Position numbers and translations under genes: made by a program | The notes under the pieces: generated by a model | Told to the model about the DNA's origin: nothing | Database searches by the model: none | The model's input: the letters and a program-made list of their open reading frames with translations, nothing else | IMG/VR virus record: IMGVR_UViG_3300029288_000120 | Location: 1-64,000 of that record | Length of the DNA stretch: 64,000 bases | Reading direction: 5' to 3' (one strand) | Origin: a virus | Lineage: Duplodnaviria; Caudoviricetes | Shown: positions 5,215 through 60,112 of the stretch, piece by piece | Layout of the letters: every line of letters starts with the position of its first letter | Numbering within the stretch: position 1 is the first letter of the stretch

Positions 5215-5597
5215 AGTTTTTTACACTACTAAAGCAACTCATGGCTAAGGTTGAGTATAGTAGGGCTCAACGGTTTGCTAAGGAGTGGGAAAAGTCTGCA
5301 AAAGAATTGATAGCTGTACTAGGGAAGAAAGAAGATATTCTAATTTCCAAATCGGTTGCTATCAAGGAGCTAATAGCAACAATTGAAGACGAACTTAAAA
5401 AAGCCAAAGCTCTCAATGTTAAGTATGAGACAGCTTTGGATGCTTTGCGAAATGAAAACAAGGTTATGTCCGAAGTAACAATCCCAGCACTGACAGCTTC
5501 TTGCCAGTTGGGACTTGAGCGTTGGCGGGCAGAAACAGCCATTCAAGTTCGTAGACAAGTAGCCGCTTCCAATATCAATAAGGAGTCGAGTAGATAA
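5211..5597 (+). CDS. Coiled-coil hypothetical protein
   Basis: Heptad-rich; overlaps both neighbours (ATGA, TAATG). Confidence 0.65.
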   Translation: MKFFTLLKQLMAKVEYSRAQRFAKEWEKSAKELIAVLGKKEDILISKSVAIKELIATIEDELKKAKALNVKYETALDALRNENKVMSEVTIPALTASCQLGLERWRAETAIQVRRQVAASNINKESSR

Positions 5598-7204
5598 TGA
5601 GTACCTTGATGGATTCTATGGAAGCCGAAAAGGCTTTCATTTCTAGTGTTAGAGCACATGCTTTGGAACTCAAAGCTGCTGGTAATTTACCATTGGATTT
5701 GTCTGTTGATGGTTCTTTTGGGTCAATCAACGAATGGCAAAGTAGATCCAGGTATCAACAGCGTTATGCTTTGAATAGAGGGGTTCTTTACTCAGCAGTA
5801 AATGCACTTGCTATGGAAGGTGCTTCTCAACCAGTAAATGTAAAGAGGTTGGTTTCAAAAGCAAAACCAAAGGGAAAGAAAAGTGCAGAAGAAGAAAAGG
5901 AAGTAGTAACAGATCATCCCCTTGTTGAAGCCCTCAAAAAACCAAACTCGATACAAAACAAATGGCAGTTTATCTATTCTTTCATAGCCAGTATTAGTCT
6001 TACCGGATGGGGATACATTATTGGGGAAGTAGATAAAGATGGCAAGATAGAGTTGTACTCCATTCCCACTACTTGGATAACACCAGATCACACCAAGGGA
6101 CCATTCTCTGCTTTCAAGCTAGCGAATCCAAACAAACCTGGAAGTGAATCCAAGACATTGGATGCTAGAAATGTGGCTTTTGCTTACTTACCTGATCCGT
6201 CAGATATGCTTTCTGCGTTGTCCCCTGCTTCTACACAATTACCTGCTATCAAATCAAATGATAATATCTGGGAAAGTCGTTTGCAGTTTTTCAAGAATGG
6301 CATCTTTCCTGGTGCTATAGTTACAGTAGGGGGAAATCCCCATCCGGGTGTTCCTGCTGGGGTAAGACCCAGATTGACAGCAGCACAAAGACGAGCAGTA
6401 TATGCTGTCATAAAGAAGTTGATGGGCGGTATAGCTAACCATGGCAATCCTGCCATTGTTGATGGAATGATTGAAAAAATTGAACGGCTATCAATGGATA
6501 GTAAGGAGATGGGTTGGGAGAAGTCAGAACCAGCTACCAAAGCAGCTATCCTCAGTGCTTTCTGTGTTCATCCTTACATTCTTGGGGAAGCTGTAAGTGT
6601 AGGAGGTTATGCTCAGGTAGCAAACATTGAGAAAAGATTCTACAAGCGTATAAATACTTATTTAGAAATGCTCAGTAACCTTCTTACAAACTTCATCAAA
6701 AATCTCACAGAAGAGGAAGGACTTGAGATAGAAGTTGAGCCTTGTGTAGCAACAGATCCAACATTAGAGTGGAGCAATTGGAAGTATGCAAGGAGCAATG
6801 GGGATATCACGCAGAACGAACTAAGGGAAAAACTTGGATTACCTCCAGATGAGGATGACAACCAATCTACAATTTCCCCACAACTATTGCAACCAATTGT
6901 ACAATTGCTTGCTCAAAAGGCTGCGGGGTCTGTAACAGTTGAGCAAGTAAAGGGATTACTAGTGGGATTGGGATTGCCTGAGGATATAGCAAGGGTTATA
7001 GCTGGTAAGGAATTGCCTCCTCCAGCAACACAACCACAACCTCAAGAACAAATAAGACAAGAGCAGAAACCAATTCCAGGCACACCCGTTATTGGAAAAC
7101 CAAAACCCGCAACAGTGCAAGCTTTGCAAGAGGCAGTAAAAGAGTTGAGAGAAGTTCCCAAGGTTGAGATGTCCAGGTTGGAAAAAATCTATGAAAGTGT
7201 CTGA
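5597..7204 (+). CDS. Portal protein (HK97-like)
   Basis: LYSAVNALA, HPL..L..PN, LTGWGY, FFKNG..PG, ILSAFCVHP..LG, ITQNELREKLGLPP. Confidence 0.9.
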   Translation: MSTLMDSMEAEKAFISSVRAHALELKAAGNLPLDLSVDGSFGSINEWQSRSRYQQRYALNRGVLYSAVNALAMEGASQPVNVKRLVSKAKPKGKKSAEEEKEVVTDHPLVEALKKPNSIQNKWQFIYSFIASISLTGWGYIIGEVDKDGKIELYSIPTTWITPDHTKGPFSAFKLANPNKPGSESKTLDARNVAFAYLPDPSDMLSALSPASTQLPAIKSNDNIWESRLQFFKNGIFPGAIVTVGGNPHPGVPAGVRPRLTAAQRRAVYAVIKKLMGGIANHGNPAIVDGMIEKIERLSMDSKEMGWEKSEPATKAAILSAFCVHPYILGEAVSVGGYAQVANIEKRFYKRINTYLEMLSNLLTNFIKNLTEEEGLEIEVEPCVATDPTLEWSNWKYARSNGDITQNELREKLGLPPDEDDNQSTISPQLLQPIVQLLAQKAAGSVTVEQVKGLLVGLGLPEDIARVIAGKELPPPATQPQPQEQIRQEQKPIPGTPVIGKPKPATVQALQEAVKELREVPKVEMSRLEKIYESV

Positions 7205-39787: not shown

Positions 39788-39802
39788 TATTGGATTGTAA
39801 AA

Positions 39803-40075
39803 ATGGGTGAGCTAACTAGCGTAAAGTACAACAAAATTCTTCTATCTTATGCTGAGTTGCGAAAGGTATTTGGATCTCGTCTTGCTTCAATAAGAAAGAA
39901 CCGGGGATGGACGCAGGAGGTACTGGCATCCAAGTTTGGCACCACCCAAGAAACCATTGCTATATGGGAAGGCAACAAGCAACTCCCCTCACGAAAGAAC
40001 GTAGACAAACTCTGCAAACTCTTGCACATTGACAGGTTCTTTTTCGAACGTGTTGAATCTAATGTGCTTAAATAG
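39803..40075 (+). CDS. XRE-family HTH regulator
   Basis: IRKNRGWTQEVLA...TQETIAIWEGNKQLP. Confidence 0.85.
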   Translation: MGELTSVKYNKILLSYAELRKVFGSRLASIRKNRGWTQEVLASKFGTTQETIAIWEGNKQLPSRKNVDKLCKLLHIDRFFFERVESNVLK

Positions 40076-40193
40076 ATAGTATATCTCTAATATACACTAT
40101 GTGATTTTCAGGGGATTTCTTAGTTTATAGGAAAATTCCTAGAAAAATTCTTGTTTATTTTGGTTATTTTTGCACCATTTCTCCCTGTTGGTA

Positions 40194-40222
40194 TGGACAG
40201 TTATATGGTTTTGACACATAAT
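40194..40222 (+). promoter_or_regulatory. Sigma70-type promoter for the ncRNA and early operon
   Basis: TGGACA-17 bp-CATAAT preceded by an AT-rich tract. Confidence 0.55.
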
Positions 40223-40225
40223 GAT

Positions 40226-40240
40226 AACATCATTGATGTT
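40226..40240. promoter_or_regulatory. Palindromic operator candidate
   Basis: AACATCA-T-TGATGTT over the predicted transcription start. Confidence 0.45.
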
Positions 40241-40650
40241 TGAAATCCTGAAAGGCAGCCGATTGGCAAGGAGTATTTTGCATAGCCCATTTGAGTCCGA
40301 GCGGAGTTAGGGTATGCAAAAGAAAGAACCGGAAATGACCGGGCAAGGGGAAGTTAGTAACGAACGTGAAAACTCCCATTCGCAGTCGATTGGCTCCCAG
40401 CCTAACAAAGCAGGTTTCACCAGGAACCATGAACAATGAGCCTGGTCCCCCTGAGATCAACAGTAGTTGCTAGGGTGAGTTGAAGCTGAGCAGTGGAGGG
40501 TTGGTGACACAAGAGTGTCACTTTCAAACAAAGGATAGTTGTGGTCGACTAACACGGGAATGATTCGATCATAATTGAGCACAGTGGGTAAGCAGTAGCA
40601 AGAATCGAAACAGTCGAAACAATCCCAGTCGAACGACAGAGTGGATTGTT
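40229..40650 (+). ncRNA. Large structured non-coding RNA of unknown class
   Basis: No + strand ORF in the track; about ten nested or serial stems, several with G-U pairs; bounded by a promoter and a hammerhead cleavage site. Confidence 0.6.
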
Positions 40651-40689
40651 CACTGTAACTGGCTATTACAGTGCTGATGAGACAAGCCA
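40613..40689 (+). ncRNA. Type II hammerhead ribozyme
   Basis: GAAA 40616-19, CUGAUGA 40674-80; stems I (8 bp), II (3 bp) and III (7 bp); GUU cleavage triplet; loop I-3' tail pseudoknot. Confidence 0.88.
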
Positions 40690-40719
40690 AGCAAACTCTT
40701 ATTTTAGGAGAGAAGAACA

Positions 40720-41382
40720 ATGTTAGATTTAGTAGTGGGACAAAAAGTCATTTATATTCCACATTATGGTGAAATGCCAAGAATAGCAACGATTACTAAG
40801 GTGTTGAAAACACGTTTCGAAATCAAGGATGAGAATGGCATAATCAAAACAAGATTTGAAGTGAATAGCTGTGGAGTGGATGGGCAAACATTTTACGCAT
40901 ATGGAACTAGAAAGAGCGGGATGGTTGTTGTTTACACTGAAGAGAACATGAAGAAGTTTACGGAAATGGCCCAACAGGAGATTAGCAGAGAGAAAGAAAA
41001 GAAGGAACGACAAGAGAAGGCTAGACTTGAACGAGATATCGAACAGAAGAAACAGATTGAGGAAGTAAAAGAACTGTATCTGCCTGATGACTGGAATGAA
41101 AGAATTCAAAATGAGATTCTCCCAGGGGATCAAAAGATGTATGTCATCAATATGCCAATCCATCCACGATATGTGGAAAACAAAGGATCGTGGGAAAGAT
41201 TAATTGTCAGAATCAAGAAGGAAGAAAGTTGGAGTTGGCAAAAGGCGGGGATGGCATATATGACGTATACTACTTGGGCAAACGAGAAAAGTCAATCCTT
41301 CTCTTCCTGTACAGGTATCAACTATGAGACAGAGGAGGAGGCATTGTGGGACAGTATTCGTAGATGCTACTTTTCATGGTAA
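40720..41382 (+). CDS. Hypothetical early protein
   Basis: AGGAG RBS; first gene after the ribozyme. Confidence 0.7.
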   Translation: MLDLVVGQKVIYIPHYGEMPRIATITKVLKTRFEIKDENGIIKTRFEVNSCGVDGQTFYAYGTRKSGMVVVYTEENMKKFTEMAQQEISREKEKKERQEKARLERDIEQKKQIEEVKELYLPDDWNERIQNEILPGDQKMYVINMPIHPRYVENKGSWERLIVRIKKEESWSWQKAGMAYMTYTTWANEKSQSFSSCTGINYETEEEALWDSIRRCYFSW

Positions 41383-41394
41383 AAAAGGAAAGAT

Positions 41395-41571
41395 ATGAGA
41401 ACAGCTATTAGCACAAGACAACCAAAAGTAGCAGTCGAGTATGACTGCTACAATACCAGAGCTACTAAGGAGTTTACAAATCCTTATGAAGCTCGTAGAT
41501 TTTATGTACTTAAACTTAAACAGGGTAAGAACCCAAAAATCAAGAAGGAGAGCGATCATGCAAACGATTAG
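41395..41571 (+). CDS. 58-aa hypothetical protein
   Basis: MRTAISTRQPKVAVEYDC...; AAGGA RBS; fills the gap. Confidence 0.55.
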   Translation: MRTAISTRQPKVAVEYDCYNTRATKEFTNPYEARRFYVLKLKQGKNPKIKKESDHAND

Positions 41572-41965
41572 TGAGAACATTTACAGACAAATAGGCAGAG
41601 CAAACGAGGTAGCTATGTTTCAGCCACCATTGATGAGAACTGGCGGTGATGGATCAATGATGGAGACATTCACGATAAAACTTGACGGCGTGGATGTTGT
41701 TCAAGTAACCTTCAACACTGGCCAGACCTTCAAAATGGAGAGGGAAGCAATTTTCTCAACACTCCGGAGAATCGTGAAGTCAAGCAAGGAGAAATACCCA
41801 GAGGAGCCTGTTGTGTTGCAAACCTATCGTGTATGGTTTGGTGACAGTGCCGTTCTGGTAAATGCTGCTAATGAAGGTGAAGCAAAATCAAATGTCTGTA
41901 ATCTAGCAGCGGTAAGAAATTACTTACAAGAAGATGGCACTTCTCTAAAAGTAGAGAAGCTATAA
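41558..41965 (+). CDS. Hypothetical protein
   Basis: Start moved to the ATG preceded by AAGGAG. Confidence 0.6.
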   Translation: MQTISENIYRQIGRANEVAMFQPPLMRTGGDGSMMETFTIKLDGVDVVQVTFNTGQTFKMEREAIFSTLRRIVKSSKEKYPEEPVVLQTYRVWFGDSAVLVNAANEGEAKSNVCNLAAVRNYLQEDGTSLKVEKL

Positions 41966-43660: not shown

Positions 43661-45142
43661 ATGAATCTAATAGAAAGACTTCGACACGCTCGTCAAGCAG
43701 GTGTACCACTGGTATCAATTGGTACACCTGATGCAGCGGCTACCATACGTCGTGTGGTTAAAGAGCTCAACAACTCACCCATTCTATCATGGGATGTGCA
43801 GAGAGGAGTTCTATCAGCAAACGAATCTGGTCAAACAGCTCTTGGTCAGATAAATAGTGATGATACCAAGGGGAATCCCCTGGGATTGATTGATGAAGCA
43901 ATCAAGCTACCTGAGAAGACCATGCTCTTCATAATGAATGCTCCAAAAGTTGCAGAAGCCACTGGTCTGCCTTGGATTCAGGGAGTATGGAATCTCAGGG
44001 ACGAGTTCAAAGCAGACCAAAGGATGGTGATACTCCTGGGTAGGTCTTCAACAGTTCCCCCTGAGCTGGAAGGGGATGTAGTTTGTATGGAGGAGGAATT
44101 GCCAACAGTAACACAACTCACCAGCATAGTCGATTCATTGGATGATGACGCCTCCCTGGCCAGACCCAAAAGAACACCCACACCAGAAGAAGTAATCAAT
44201 AAGGCAGTGGATGCCGTTTCGGGGTTGTCAGCTTTCTCAGCAGAACAAGCTGTAGCAATGGCCATCCGAGCAGATGGCATAGATCTGGACCTTCTCTGGG
44301 ACATCAAGCGGACAATGATTGAGGAAACCCCTGGGTTATCTTGTTGGAGAGGGGGGGAAAGATTCTCAGATATTGGTGGACTTAAAAACGTCAAAGGGTA
44401 CTGCCAGTCGATGGTCAACGGTCGCAAGAAGTATGGGGCTGTGGTATTCATTGACGAGATTGAGAAGCTATTGGCAGGGGCTACAGAGGGCACTGGGGAC
44501 AGTTCCGGTGTAAGCCAGGGTTTCTTACAGGTACTCCTTACGTACATGCAAGACCACAATGTAAGTGGGATGATTTTCATCGGGCATCCAGGGGCCGGCA
44601 AATCAATGGTAGCCAAGAGCATAGGAGCCGAAGTTGGTATACCCACAATTGCCTTGGATGTCAATGCGATGAAGAGTAGTTTGGTAGGTTCAAGTGAGCA
44701 ACGTATACGAGAAGCAATGAAAGTTGTTACAGCAGTAAGTAATGACAAGCCTTTATTCGTTGCCACTTGCAACAAAATTGCAAACCTTCCCCCTGAGTTA
44801 CGGCGACGATTTACTGCTGGTACATTTTTCTTTGACCTCCCAGATTCCTCAGAGAGAGATGTCATTTGGACATACTACATGGAAAAGTATGAGTTGGAAG
44901 AACAGGAAGGTCCACTAGACGAAGGATGGACAGGGGCTGAAATTAAAGCCTGCTGTCAAGGAGCATGGGAACGCAACGTGTCACTCTTGGAAGCAGCCAA
45001 GTTCATTGTTCCAGTAGCCAAGGCTGATCCAGCCAGGATAAAGAAGCTACAAGATGAGGCTGTTGGTCGTTACATATCAGCCTCATCTGATGGAACATAC
45101 AAAACAGTAAGCACAGAGAAGAAGAGAGTAGTTCGTACTTGA
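43661..45142 (+). CDS. Ycf46-like AAA+ ATPase with permuted Walker motifs
   Basis: DIGGL, VFIDEIEK, GHPGAGKS, LVGSSE, FVATCN..LPPEL.RRF, FFFDLP, WTGAEI. Confidence 0.85.
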   Translation: MNLIERLRHARQAGVPLVSIGTPDAAATIRRVVKELNNSPILSWDVQRGVLSANESGQTALGQINSDDTKGNPLGLIDEAIKLPEKTMLFIMNAPKVAEATGLPWIQGVWNLRDEFKADQRMVILLGRSSTVPPELEGDVVCMEEELPTVTQLTSIVDSLDDDASLARPKRTPTPEEVINKAVDAVSGLSAFSAEQAVAMAIRADGIDLDLLWDIKRTMIEETPGLSCWRGGERFSDIGGLKNVKGYCQSMVNGRKKYGAVVFIDEIEKLLAGATEGTGDSSGVSQGFLQVLLTYMQDHNVSGMIFIGHPGAGKSMVAKSIGAEVGIPTIALDVNAMKSSLVGSSEQRIREAMKVVTAVSNDKPLFVATCNKIANLPPELRRRFTAGTFFFDLPDSSERDVIWTYYMEKYELEEQEGPLDEGWTGAEIKACCQGAWERNVSLLEAAKFIVPVAKADPARIKKLQDEAVGRYISASSDGTYKTVSTEKKRVVRT

Positions 45143-58566: not shown

Positions 58567-59210
58567 ACACACAAATACCTGAAAAAATCGACTACGATCC
58601 AGAAGGAAGTTTGGACGTAGTCGATATCTTTTATTCCATTCAAGGAGAAGGCCCCCTTGTAGGAACACCAGCAGTATTTATTAGGCTTGCTGGTTGCAAT
58701 TTTTGGTGTAGATTCTGTGATACTGACTACACCACTGGTAGACATAGAATGTCTGTAGAAGATATAGTTGGGGTGGTGAAGAATTTCCCAACTTGTTCTC
58801 TAGTAGTATTAACTGGAGGGGAGCCTTTTAGGCAAAACGTAGCCCCATTGATTTCCAAGTTAGGATGTATGGTCCAAGTGGAAACCAATGGTACCCTAGA
58901 TCCACAGGGAATAGATAAAGACCAGTTTTCTTGGCTAAATATAATTTGCAGTCCCAAAACAGGCAATGAATCCATTTCCGATGTCATAAGAAAAAATGCT
59001 TCTGCTATCAAGTATGTAATAGATGTGATGAGGATAGATGGGCAAGATGGATTGCCAAGGGGATTGGCAAGGTTTACGGGTATTCCTGTGTTTGTACAAC
59101 CTATGGATAATGAAGACTATAATAGGAATGTACAGGCAGCAGTTGATAGCTGTTTGAAGTTTGGGTACCGTTTATCACTTCAAATGCACAAGATAGTAGG
59201 AATAAAATGA
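58545..59210 (+). CDS. queE: 7-carboxy-7-deazaguanine synthase (radical SAM)
   Basis: FYSIQGEG...G.PAVFIRLAGCN..C.FCDT, TGGEP, VETNG, SPK, LSLQMHK. Confidence 0.93.
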   Translation: MGRFDPVNTQIPEKIDYDPEGSLDVVDIFYSIQGEGPLVGTPAVFIRLAGCNFWCRFCDTDYTTGRHRMSVEDIVGVVKNFPTCSLVVLTGGEPFRQNVAPLISKLGCMVQVETNGTLDPQGIDKDQFSWLNIICSPKTGNESISDVIRKNASAIKYVIDVMRIDGQDGLPRGLARFTGIPVFVQPMDNEDYNRNVQAAVDSCLKFGYRLSLQMHKIVGIK

Positions 59211-60112
59211 AAACAGTTGATTTAACATGGTGTGCGTTAAGATCACGTGCAGAAGCTGTAGTAAAGGACATCTTACTCCGTCCCTTCCATGACCATGATA
59301 GACTATATGCCTACCCGGTTCCTCGGGGGGGTGTTTATGCTGGTCTAATCTTGCAGGAGGTTGGAAAAGTTGTTGGGTTGGATATTGAGTTGGTAGACGA
59401 TCCAGCAGTAGCTCATATTTACATAGATGATATCATTGACTCAGGCGAAACTAGAGAAAGATACCAGAAAAAATCATGCAAACGATTTTATGCTTTAATA
59501 GATAAGACAGCAGATCTTGAAAGTATTTGGTATACATTTCCTTGGGAGAGACTAAGTGGGGAGAATGGTCCACAGGAGAACGTCAGACGGTTGCTGGAGT
59601 ATATAGGGGATGATCCCAATAGGGAAGGTCTGAAAGATACTCCAGATAGAGTGATAAGATCTTTTGAAGAACTTTACTCAGGGTACAAGACACAGCCAAG
59701 TAACATTTTGACTGTATTCAAAGATGGCACTTGTAATGAGATGGTTGTTCTGAAAGATATAGAGTTTTACAGTACTTGCGAGCACCACATGCTTCCATTT
59801 TTTGGTAAAGCTCACATTGCCTATATTCCCAACGGTAAGGTTGTTGGCATATCGAAGTTGGCAAGATTGTTAGAAGTATTCAGTAGGAGATTGCAAATAC
59901 AAGAGAGAATCTGTCAGCAAGTAACAGCTTCTCTTGATAAGAATTTGCAACCTATGGGATCTGCTTGTATTCTACAAGCACAACATTTCTGCATGACTAG
60001 TCGGGGAGTGCAGAAGCAGAACTCTATTATGGTGACAAGTTCACTGACTGGGGCATTTCTGGAATCTGATAGGGTTAGGCAGGAATTACTTAGTTTGGTT
60101 GGAAAAGGATAG
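59207..60112 (+). CDS. folE: Phosphoribosyltransferase-like domain fused to GTP cyclohydrolase I
   Basis: N-terminal VPRGG, IDDIIDSGET, FPWE; C-terminal REGL.DTP.R, CEHHMLPF, GISKLAR, RLQIQER, HFCMTSRG. Confidence 0.92.
   Translation: MKTVDLTWCALRSRAEAVVKDILLRPFHDHDRLYAYPVPRGGVYAGLILQEVGKVVGLDIELVDDPAVAHIYIDDIIDSGETRERYQKKSCKRFYALIDKTADLESIWYTFPWERLSGENGPQENVRRLLEYIGDDPNREGLKDTPDRVIRSFEELYSGYKTQPSNILTVFKDGTCNEMVVLKDIEFYSTCEHHMLPFFGKAHIAYIPNGKVVGISKLARLLEVFSRRLQIQERICQQVTASLDKNLQPMGSACILQAQHFCMTSRGVQKQNSIMVTSSLTGAFLESDRVRQELLSLVGKG

Follow-up and report, generated by a model that had tools for sequence, protein, structure and literature searches.

Natural type II hammerhead ribozymes, in which a pseudoknot joins loop I to the 3' tail, were described by Perreault et al. 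in 2011 (PMC3088659), and fast cleavage in vitro was found to require this loop I-3' tail pseudoknot (PMC3088659). Multiple hammerheads were seen flanking prophage genes, and a role in the processing of long phage transcripts was proposed (PMC3088659). The element described here lies at positions 40613-40689 (+ strand) of a 64,000-nucleotide stretch of DNA from a metagenomic phage, referred to as the window; this stretch belongs to an IMG/VR virus record rated complete, with a genome of 93,208 bases. In every structural respect that can be tested by sequence the element fits the 2011 description, and it falls short only of the score cut-off of the corresponding Rfam family (RF02276). With this class it shares the circular permutation, the core, the short stem II and the UGGC/GCCA pseudoknot of the Rfam consensus, as well as the setting between phage or prophage genes (PMC3088659). 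It departs from the RF02276 class in its 17-nt stem III loop with an inner hairpin, in a score 5 bits under the cut-off and in its position 17, which is U where the class has C. Unlike the prophage hammerheads of Perreault et al., it is a single copy that ends a long structured leader and not one of several elements flanking genes. The hammerhead class and its intergenic phage setting were already described in 2011 (PMC3088659), and the element is an ordinary further member; a well-supported, unannotated hammerhead below the Rfam cut-off is added to the class, and knowledge of the class is unchanged.

Inspection of the sequence found every core and helix element of a type II hammerhead, and each of the elements listed in a preliminary description of this DNA lies exactly where it had been placed. 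The 5'-proximal strand of stem II, GUC (40613-40615, positions 11.3-11.1), pairs with its 3'-proximal strand, GAC (40681-40683, positions 10.1-10.3), the latter assigned from sequence and covariation. The first strand is followed by the core nucleotides G12 A13 A14 (40616-40618), which together with A15.1 give the GAAA shared by 47 of the 49 distinct members of the family, and by the stem III hairpin (40619-40649), in which 7 bp (ACAAUCC, 40619-40625, with GGAUUGU, 40643-40649) are closed by the A15.1-U16.1 pair (A40619-U40649) and enclose a 17-nt loop containing a small GUC/GAC hairpin. U17 (40650) separates stem III from the stem I hairpin (40651-40673), an 8-bp helix of CACUGUAA (40651-40658) and UUACAGUG (40666-40673) with the loop CUGGCUA, after which come the core nucleotides C3-A9, CUGAUGA (40674-40680). 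Downstream of stem II, the 3' strand of the pseudoknot, AGCCA (40685-40689), pairs with UGGCU of loop I (40660-40664); the same pairing is present in the Rfam consensus and covaries in relatives.

The core nucleotides are thus all canonical (C3 U4 G5 A6 N7 G8 A9 and G12 A13 A14), and the helices around them are of 8, 3 and 7 bp. Stems I and III are capped by loops and stem II is open, which is the type II permutation, as given both by the order of the elements and by the full-length model match (1-66). In this type, loop I forms a pseudoknot of at least 4 bp with the nucleotides that immediately follow stem II; here it has 5 bp. Because the register of the core fixes U17, cleavage is predicted on its 3' side (40650/40651), and U40650 is in keeping with a cleavage-site nucleotide 17 that is H and not G. 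By folding, the hammerhead secondary structure has an energy of -19.7 kcal/mol, to which the pseudoknot duplex adds -5.8; the unconstrained minimum, -23.6, is of similar size, and the unconstrained local RNA fold is a structure that competes with the ribozyme fold. In a groundwater-metagenome contig about 95% identical over 39800-41582, the sole variant inside the ribozyme among the differences listed is 40653 C>U, so that one C-G pair of stem I becomes U.G. The sequence TCGAAACA occurs twice as an 8-nt direct repeat, at 40605-40612 and 40614-40621, and with it stem II and the GAAA have a second, weaker register.

A strict descriptor covering all three hammerhead permutations was run on the 93,208-base genome, where the window site was the only strong match; it has 18 perfect stem pairs, and the best of 200 Markov-shuffled versions of this genome reached 17. 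Hammerheads with bulges or tiny loops were missed by the strict descriptor. A compact energy-based descriptor returned seven sites in 802 kb of DNA from this phage and related sources versus none in each of 10 shuffles. The matches of a relaxed long-span descriptor were long false positives inside genes and were rejected.

In a local scan RF02276 (Hammerhead_II) matched the element over all 66 model positions with 32.0 bits (E 6.6e-5 over 301 nt, which scales arithmetically to about 0.014 for the whole window), 5 bits short of the gathering score of 37 bits, itself an operational cut-off and not a structural feature. A scan of the window at gathering level gave no match because 32.0 bits lies under 37, and the shortfall is due to the insertion that lengthens the stem III loop. 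A search of the phage's own genome with RF02276 was blank up to E = 10, which is attributed to the prefilter of that search. When R1, a covariance model derived solely from the hammerhead of one related locus (L007), was searched against 767 kb, the window element scored 49 bits with E 1.5e-11. With a second covariance model, R2, built from five sequences and run over the whole phage genome with filters off, no second hammerhead was found.

Since the gene just downstream of the ribozyme is an orphan, the neighbouring AAA ATPase gene was taken as the anchor for finding relatives. The same hammerhead subfamily, whose hallmark is loop I CUGGCUA together with the 3' tail AAGCCA, is present in phages sharing this ATPase gene and in 17 other viral contigs. 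Among the relatives, type II matches were obtained with Rfam at L008:6366-6441 (37.1 bits, at the cut-off), L007:2448-2515 (36.6 bits) and L008:5876-5942 (30.4 bits). The UGGCU/AGCCA pseudoknot is common to the window, L007 and L008:6366, and loop I CUGGCUA to the window and L007, while stems I and III of L007 and L008:6366 are wholly different in sequence from those of the window. R2 recovered members on which it had not been trained in L045, L051 and L008 (34-39 bits), and a pattern scan of IMG/VR with the loop I, core and tail motif identified 18 loci, one of them (L105) on the same contig as L007; with the pattern-scan loci included, R2 gave 57 matches in 22 sources. The sisters of the window element are those at L007:2447-2516, L008:6365-6442, L008:9427-9501, L008:5875-5946 and L062:556-623, those of L045 and L051, and those of the 17 further IMG/VR contigs. 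Loop I and tail are identical to the window in L007 and the pattern-found contigs, and the stems are of equal length and differing sequence; unlike the window element, the sisters come in several copies (up to seven, in L098), mostly right after a stop codon, and mostly carry C17. In IMG/VR the CUGGCUA/AAGCCA subfamily also forms dense arrays on several viral contigs, among them L098 with seven copies, L104 with six and L102 with five, spaced by a few hundred bases on one strand.

The alignments used for covariation were guided by the model and replaced MAFFT alignments that were structurally wrong. In an alignment of ten hammerheads that includes the pseudoknot, 97.6% of the cells form standard pairs, and both partners vary in 16 of 23 pairs, one of these in the pseudoknot; none of 500 shuffles reaches this result, and slid partners are 36-46% paired. 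For the set of 49 distinct sequences the paired fraction of stem cells is 97.7%, both partners vary in 16 of 18 pairs, and a covariation score of 0.886 compares with 0.19; alignments fitted to the model favour the structure, and the margin over the slid controls is still large. All eight pairs of stem I and all seven of stem III change on both sides in these 49 sequences, and the middle pair of stem II is CG in 24, UA in 23 and GC in 2 members of the family. Pseudoknot cells are 100% paired in the ten-sequence alignment, with one pair that is C-G, U-A or G-C depending on the member; the pseudoknot of L008:5875-5946 differs, with 5 bp (GAACC/GGUUC), and that of L008:9427-9501 has 6 bp (UUGGGU/GCCCAA), both of them being off-register variants. 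The covariation in hammerheads of related phages backs the type II topology, canonical core, loop I-tail pseudoknot and predicted cleavage site after U40650 that had been proposed for the window, all of which hold. In L008:9427-9501 a U15.1-A16.1 pair replaces the near-invariant A15.1-U16.1 (one of 49 members), the remaining core being intact.

The core nucleotides C3-A9 read CUGAUGA, CUGACGA or CUGAAGA among family members, and position 17 is C in 44 of 49, A in three and U in two; the GUU of the window is unusual but not unique within the family. In minimal hammerhead constructs, GUU is cut more slowly than GUC. It is listed among the active, cleavable NUH triplets (PMC3138052).

At the ATPase-anchored loci, oriented by the ATPase, all sisters in the related phages, the L007 and L008 members included, are on the ATPase strand, and those read in detail stand in short intergenic gaps. 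In the relatives read in detail (L007, L008 and L004) the hammerhead precedes an RBS and ATG by 14-47 nt, the corresponding distance to the ATG in the window being 30. In L008 a gene (5455-5877) is followed by a hammerhead, a gene, a second hammerhead and a further gene (6462-6656), with a third hammerhead after the ATPase, and the type II copy of L007 lies between 2443 and the ATG at 2535. In the closest relative, L002, whose ATPase is 81% identical and which is syntenic with the window, the leader (L002:5053-5380, 328 bases) contains no hammerhead and no ribozyme of any Rfam class; the hammerhead is therefore dispensable, an element that is gained and lost.

In the window, the hammerhead occupies the 3' end of a 644-base gene-free stretch between an HTH regulator gene (39803-40075) and the genes of a replication module, 30 bases ahead of ATG 40720. 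Upstream of the HTH regulator there are a portal gene, further long ORFs and a weak sulfotransferase-like match. Downstream of the ribozyme there are orphan genes, the AAA ATPase gene (43661-45142) and genes for a DUF3150 protein and an SNF2 helicase, and further on genes for primase-like and DnaB-like proteins, GTP cyclohydrolase I and a clamp-like protein; every long ORF with a protein-family match is on the + strand. Given these downstream replication genes, "early" or replication module is a reasonable label, and the earlier placement of the ribozyme in front of an early operon is a fair one, in view of the ATPase, helicase, primase-like, DnaB-like and clamp-like genes and of the common + orientation. 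The GTP cyclohydrolase I gene is at 59207-60112, inside the replication module.

The first downstream gene (40720-41382) is preceded by a Shine-Dalgarno sequence, AGGAG (40706-40710; with the ATG, 40706-40722, + strand). Its 220-aa product has no relative in the viral contigs, and its sole match in the protein collection is a 100%-identical entry with two member sequences on one contig. The HTH gene used as a search query gave one locus only and was uninformative, and no phage record was matched by 39800-41400 in blastn. A consensus scan of the region found a promoter-like site, TGGACA-17-CATAAT (40194-40222, + strand), on 10 of 12 consensus matches, and no terminator-like site; in L002, a consensus promoter (TTGACA-16-TATAAT) is present at the equivalent place after the HTH gene.

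Taken together, we consider it very probable that the element at 40613-40689 (+) is a genuine type II hammerhead with a 5-bp pseudoknot, which would cleave itself co-transcriptionally at 40650/40651 and split the leader from the mRNA. The analysis establishes the motif, the significance of its match, its kinship with a covarying subfamily and its place in the genome, whereas cleavage, transcription start and any influence on the stability or translation of the mRNA are inferred. Its most likely function would be to detach, by this self-cleavage during transcription, an unusually structured leader of about 420 nt from the replication-gene mRNA. The transcript would start near the promoter-like site, at about 40222, or would arrive by read-through from upstream, and the nascent ribozyme would then fold and, by the transesterification of hammerhead chemistry, cut between U40650 and C40651. 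The 5' product would be a structured leader of about 420 nt with the stem III hairpin at its end and a 2',3'-cyclic phosphate, and the 3' product would be the mRNA of gene 40720 and of the genes that follow, with a 5'-OH on the very first base of the 8-bp stem I hairpin. This 3' product would keep the two pseudoknot strands, the stem I hairpin being still knotted to AGCCA. The Shine-Dalgarno sequence is 17 nt past the pseudoknot and the 5' UTR remaining after the predicted cleavage is 69 nt long, the distance between cleavage site and ATG 40720 that had been given before. In bacteria, 5'-terminal hairpins and 5'-OH ends slow 5'-end-dependent decay, so that an early mRNA stabilised through its 5'-OH hairpin end is a plausible outcome of such cleavage. 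The simple single-copy layout, with a promoter-like site, a leader, a ribozyme and a first gene, makes this locus a convenient case for studying the effect of a hammerhead on the RNA on either side of the cut, a question that has stood since 2011.

The same ribozyme might instead have as its main job the formation of the 3' end of a discrete structured non-coding RNA of about 420 nt that would extend from promoter to ribozyme, with the conditioning of the mRNA as a by-product, an alternative that we regard as possible and hold only tentatively. The putative structured leader RNA (40229-40612, + strand), delimited by folding and GC content, would together with stem III make up the 5' product if cleavage occurs. 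The stretch 40229-40650 folds at -133.5 kcal/mol, with z = -4.2 and none of 100 shuffles reaching it on the + strand; the z-score of the - strand is -1.95, so that the excess of structure is confined to the + strand. The GC content of the leader, 0.45-0.51, is above the 0.33-0.41 of its flanks. A similarly structured stretch of 725 nt (z = -3.55) is ended by a hammerhead of type III in L004, and the ribozyme-less leader of L002 is both shorter and not unusual in this respect (z = -1.44), which further argues for the non-coding RNA. A z-score, however, is by itself no proof of function, and blastn and nhmmer found no homologue of the leader among phage records or 86 related loci; nor does it match an Rfam family, riboswitch, tRNA or tmRNA. 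Two minus-strand ORFs (40230-40460 and 40457-40720) and a 41-aa plus-strand ORF in this region match no PHROG family. Two other contigs (X3 and X4) leave 40290-40647 uncovered, and no conclusion is based on this. Set against the predicted pairs of the leader, the variants listed for the 95%-identical groundwater contig are mixed, four keeping a pair and three breaking one, and those members of the subfamily in relatives that were read in detail follow ordinary genes and not structured RNAs.

A decayed or very slow hammerhead, kept as a structural relic without useful cutting in vivo, appears improbable. It would agree with the rarity of U17 in the family, with a stem II of only 3 bp, with a stem III loop 13 nt longer than that of the L007 hammerhead, with the presence of a single copy here versus up to seven in relatives and with its complete absence from L002; on the other hand, the invariant core nucleotides are all intact, there is no flaw in either long stem or in the 5-bp pseudoknot, and the one variant listed inside the ribozyme in a relative keeps its pair. 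Moreover, stem II commonly has 2-3 bp in the class (PMC3088659), and position 17, as an H, may be U (PMC3138052). We judge as very improbable a regulated ribozyme, in which pairing with the leader or a leader-bound factor would switch cleavage and thereby gate early-gene expression. The local minimum-energy fold does compete with stems I and II, the direct repeat of TCGAAACA offers its second, weaker register, and allosteric control was raised as a possibility by Perreault et al. (PMC3088659); against this, no conserved alternative structure could be demonstrated, the leader gave no riboswitch match and the stem III hairpin still forms as in the ribozyme when the whole leader is folded. A chance resemblance without ribozyme function is effectively refuted already, given that the shuffles did not match the stem pairs in any of 200 cases, that the model from a relative (R1) gave its very low E value and that loop I and tail are common to a covarying family, the score under the Rfam gathering cut-off being what speaks for it. 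Self-cleavage that separates the leader from the replication-gene mRNA remains our preferred reading.

Hammerheads of another permutation are found in the same phage group. The sequence at L004:3048-3101 weakly matches Hammerhead_3 (RF00008; 25 bits, E 0.34) and is homologous to L007:2022-2070, the two type III hammerheads being 85.7% identical over 49 bases. Inspection of the two copies shows A-U in one and G-C in the other as the pair that closes stem I, and four pairs between loops I and II that are maintained in both, one of them by a swap of C-G for G-C. Stem II has only one or two pairs in these copies, a length reported as common (Perreault et al. 2011, PMC3088659). Like the window element, they belong to the same phage group and are placed shortly before an RBS and ATG (14-20 bases in each case), and unlike it they have an open stem III, a loop I-loop II pseudoknot and no sequence similarity to it outside the core. 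The L004 copy ends its 725-nt intergenic stretch after an HTH gene, a layout like that of the window. Hammerheads of both types, II and III, are used across the early region of this one phage group, which is recognisable by its shared AAA ATPase. It could be supposed, although we find the proposal rather doubtful, that promoter, leader of about 420 nt and ribozyme form one unit: a structured phage RNA not described before would be produced where the replication-gene transcript begins and would receive its 3' end from the hammerhead, and in L004 the type III copy would do likewise; if it were true, the permutation of the ribozyme would be interchangeable, and selection would keep the order of structured RNA, ribozyme and first gene. 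In L007, the gene at 2085-2443 is flanked by one type III and one type II hammerhead.
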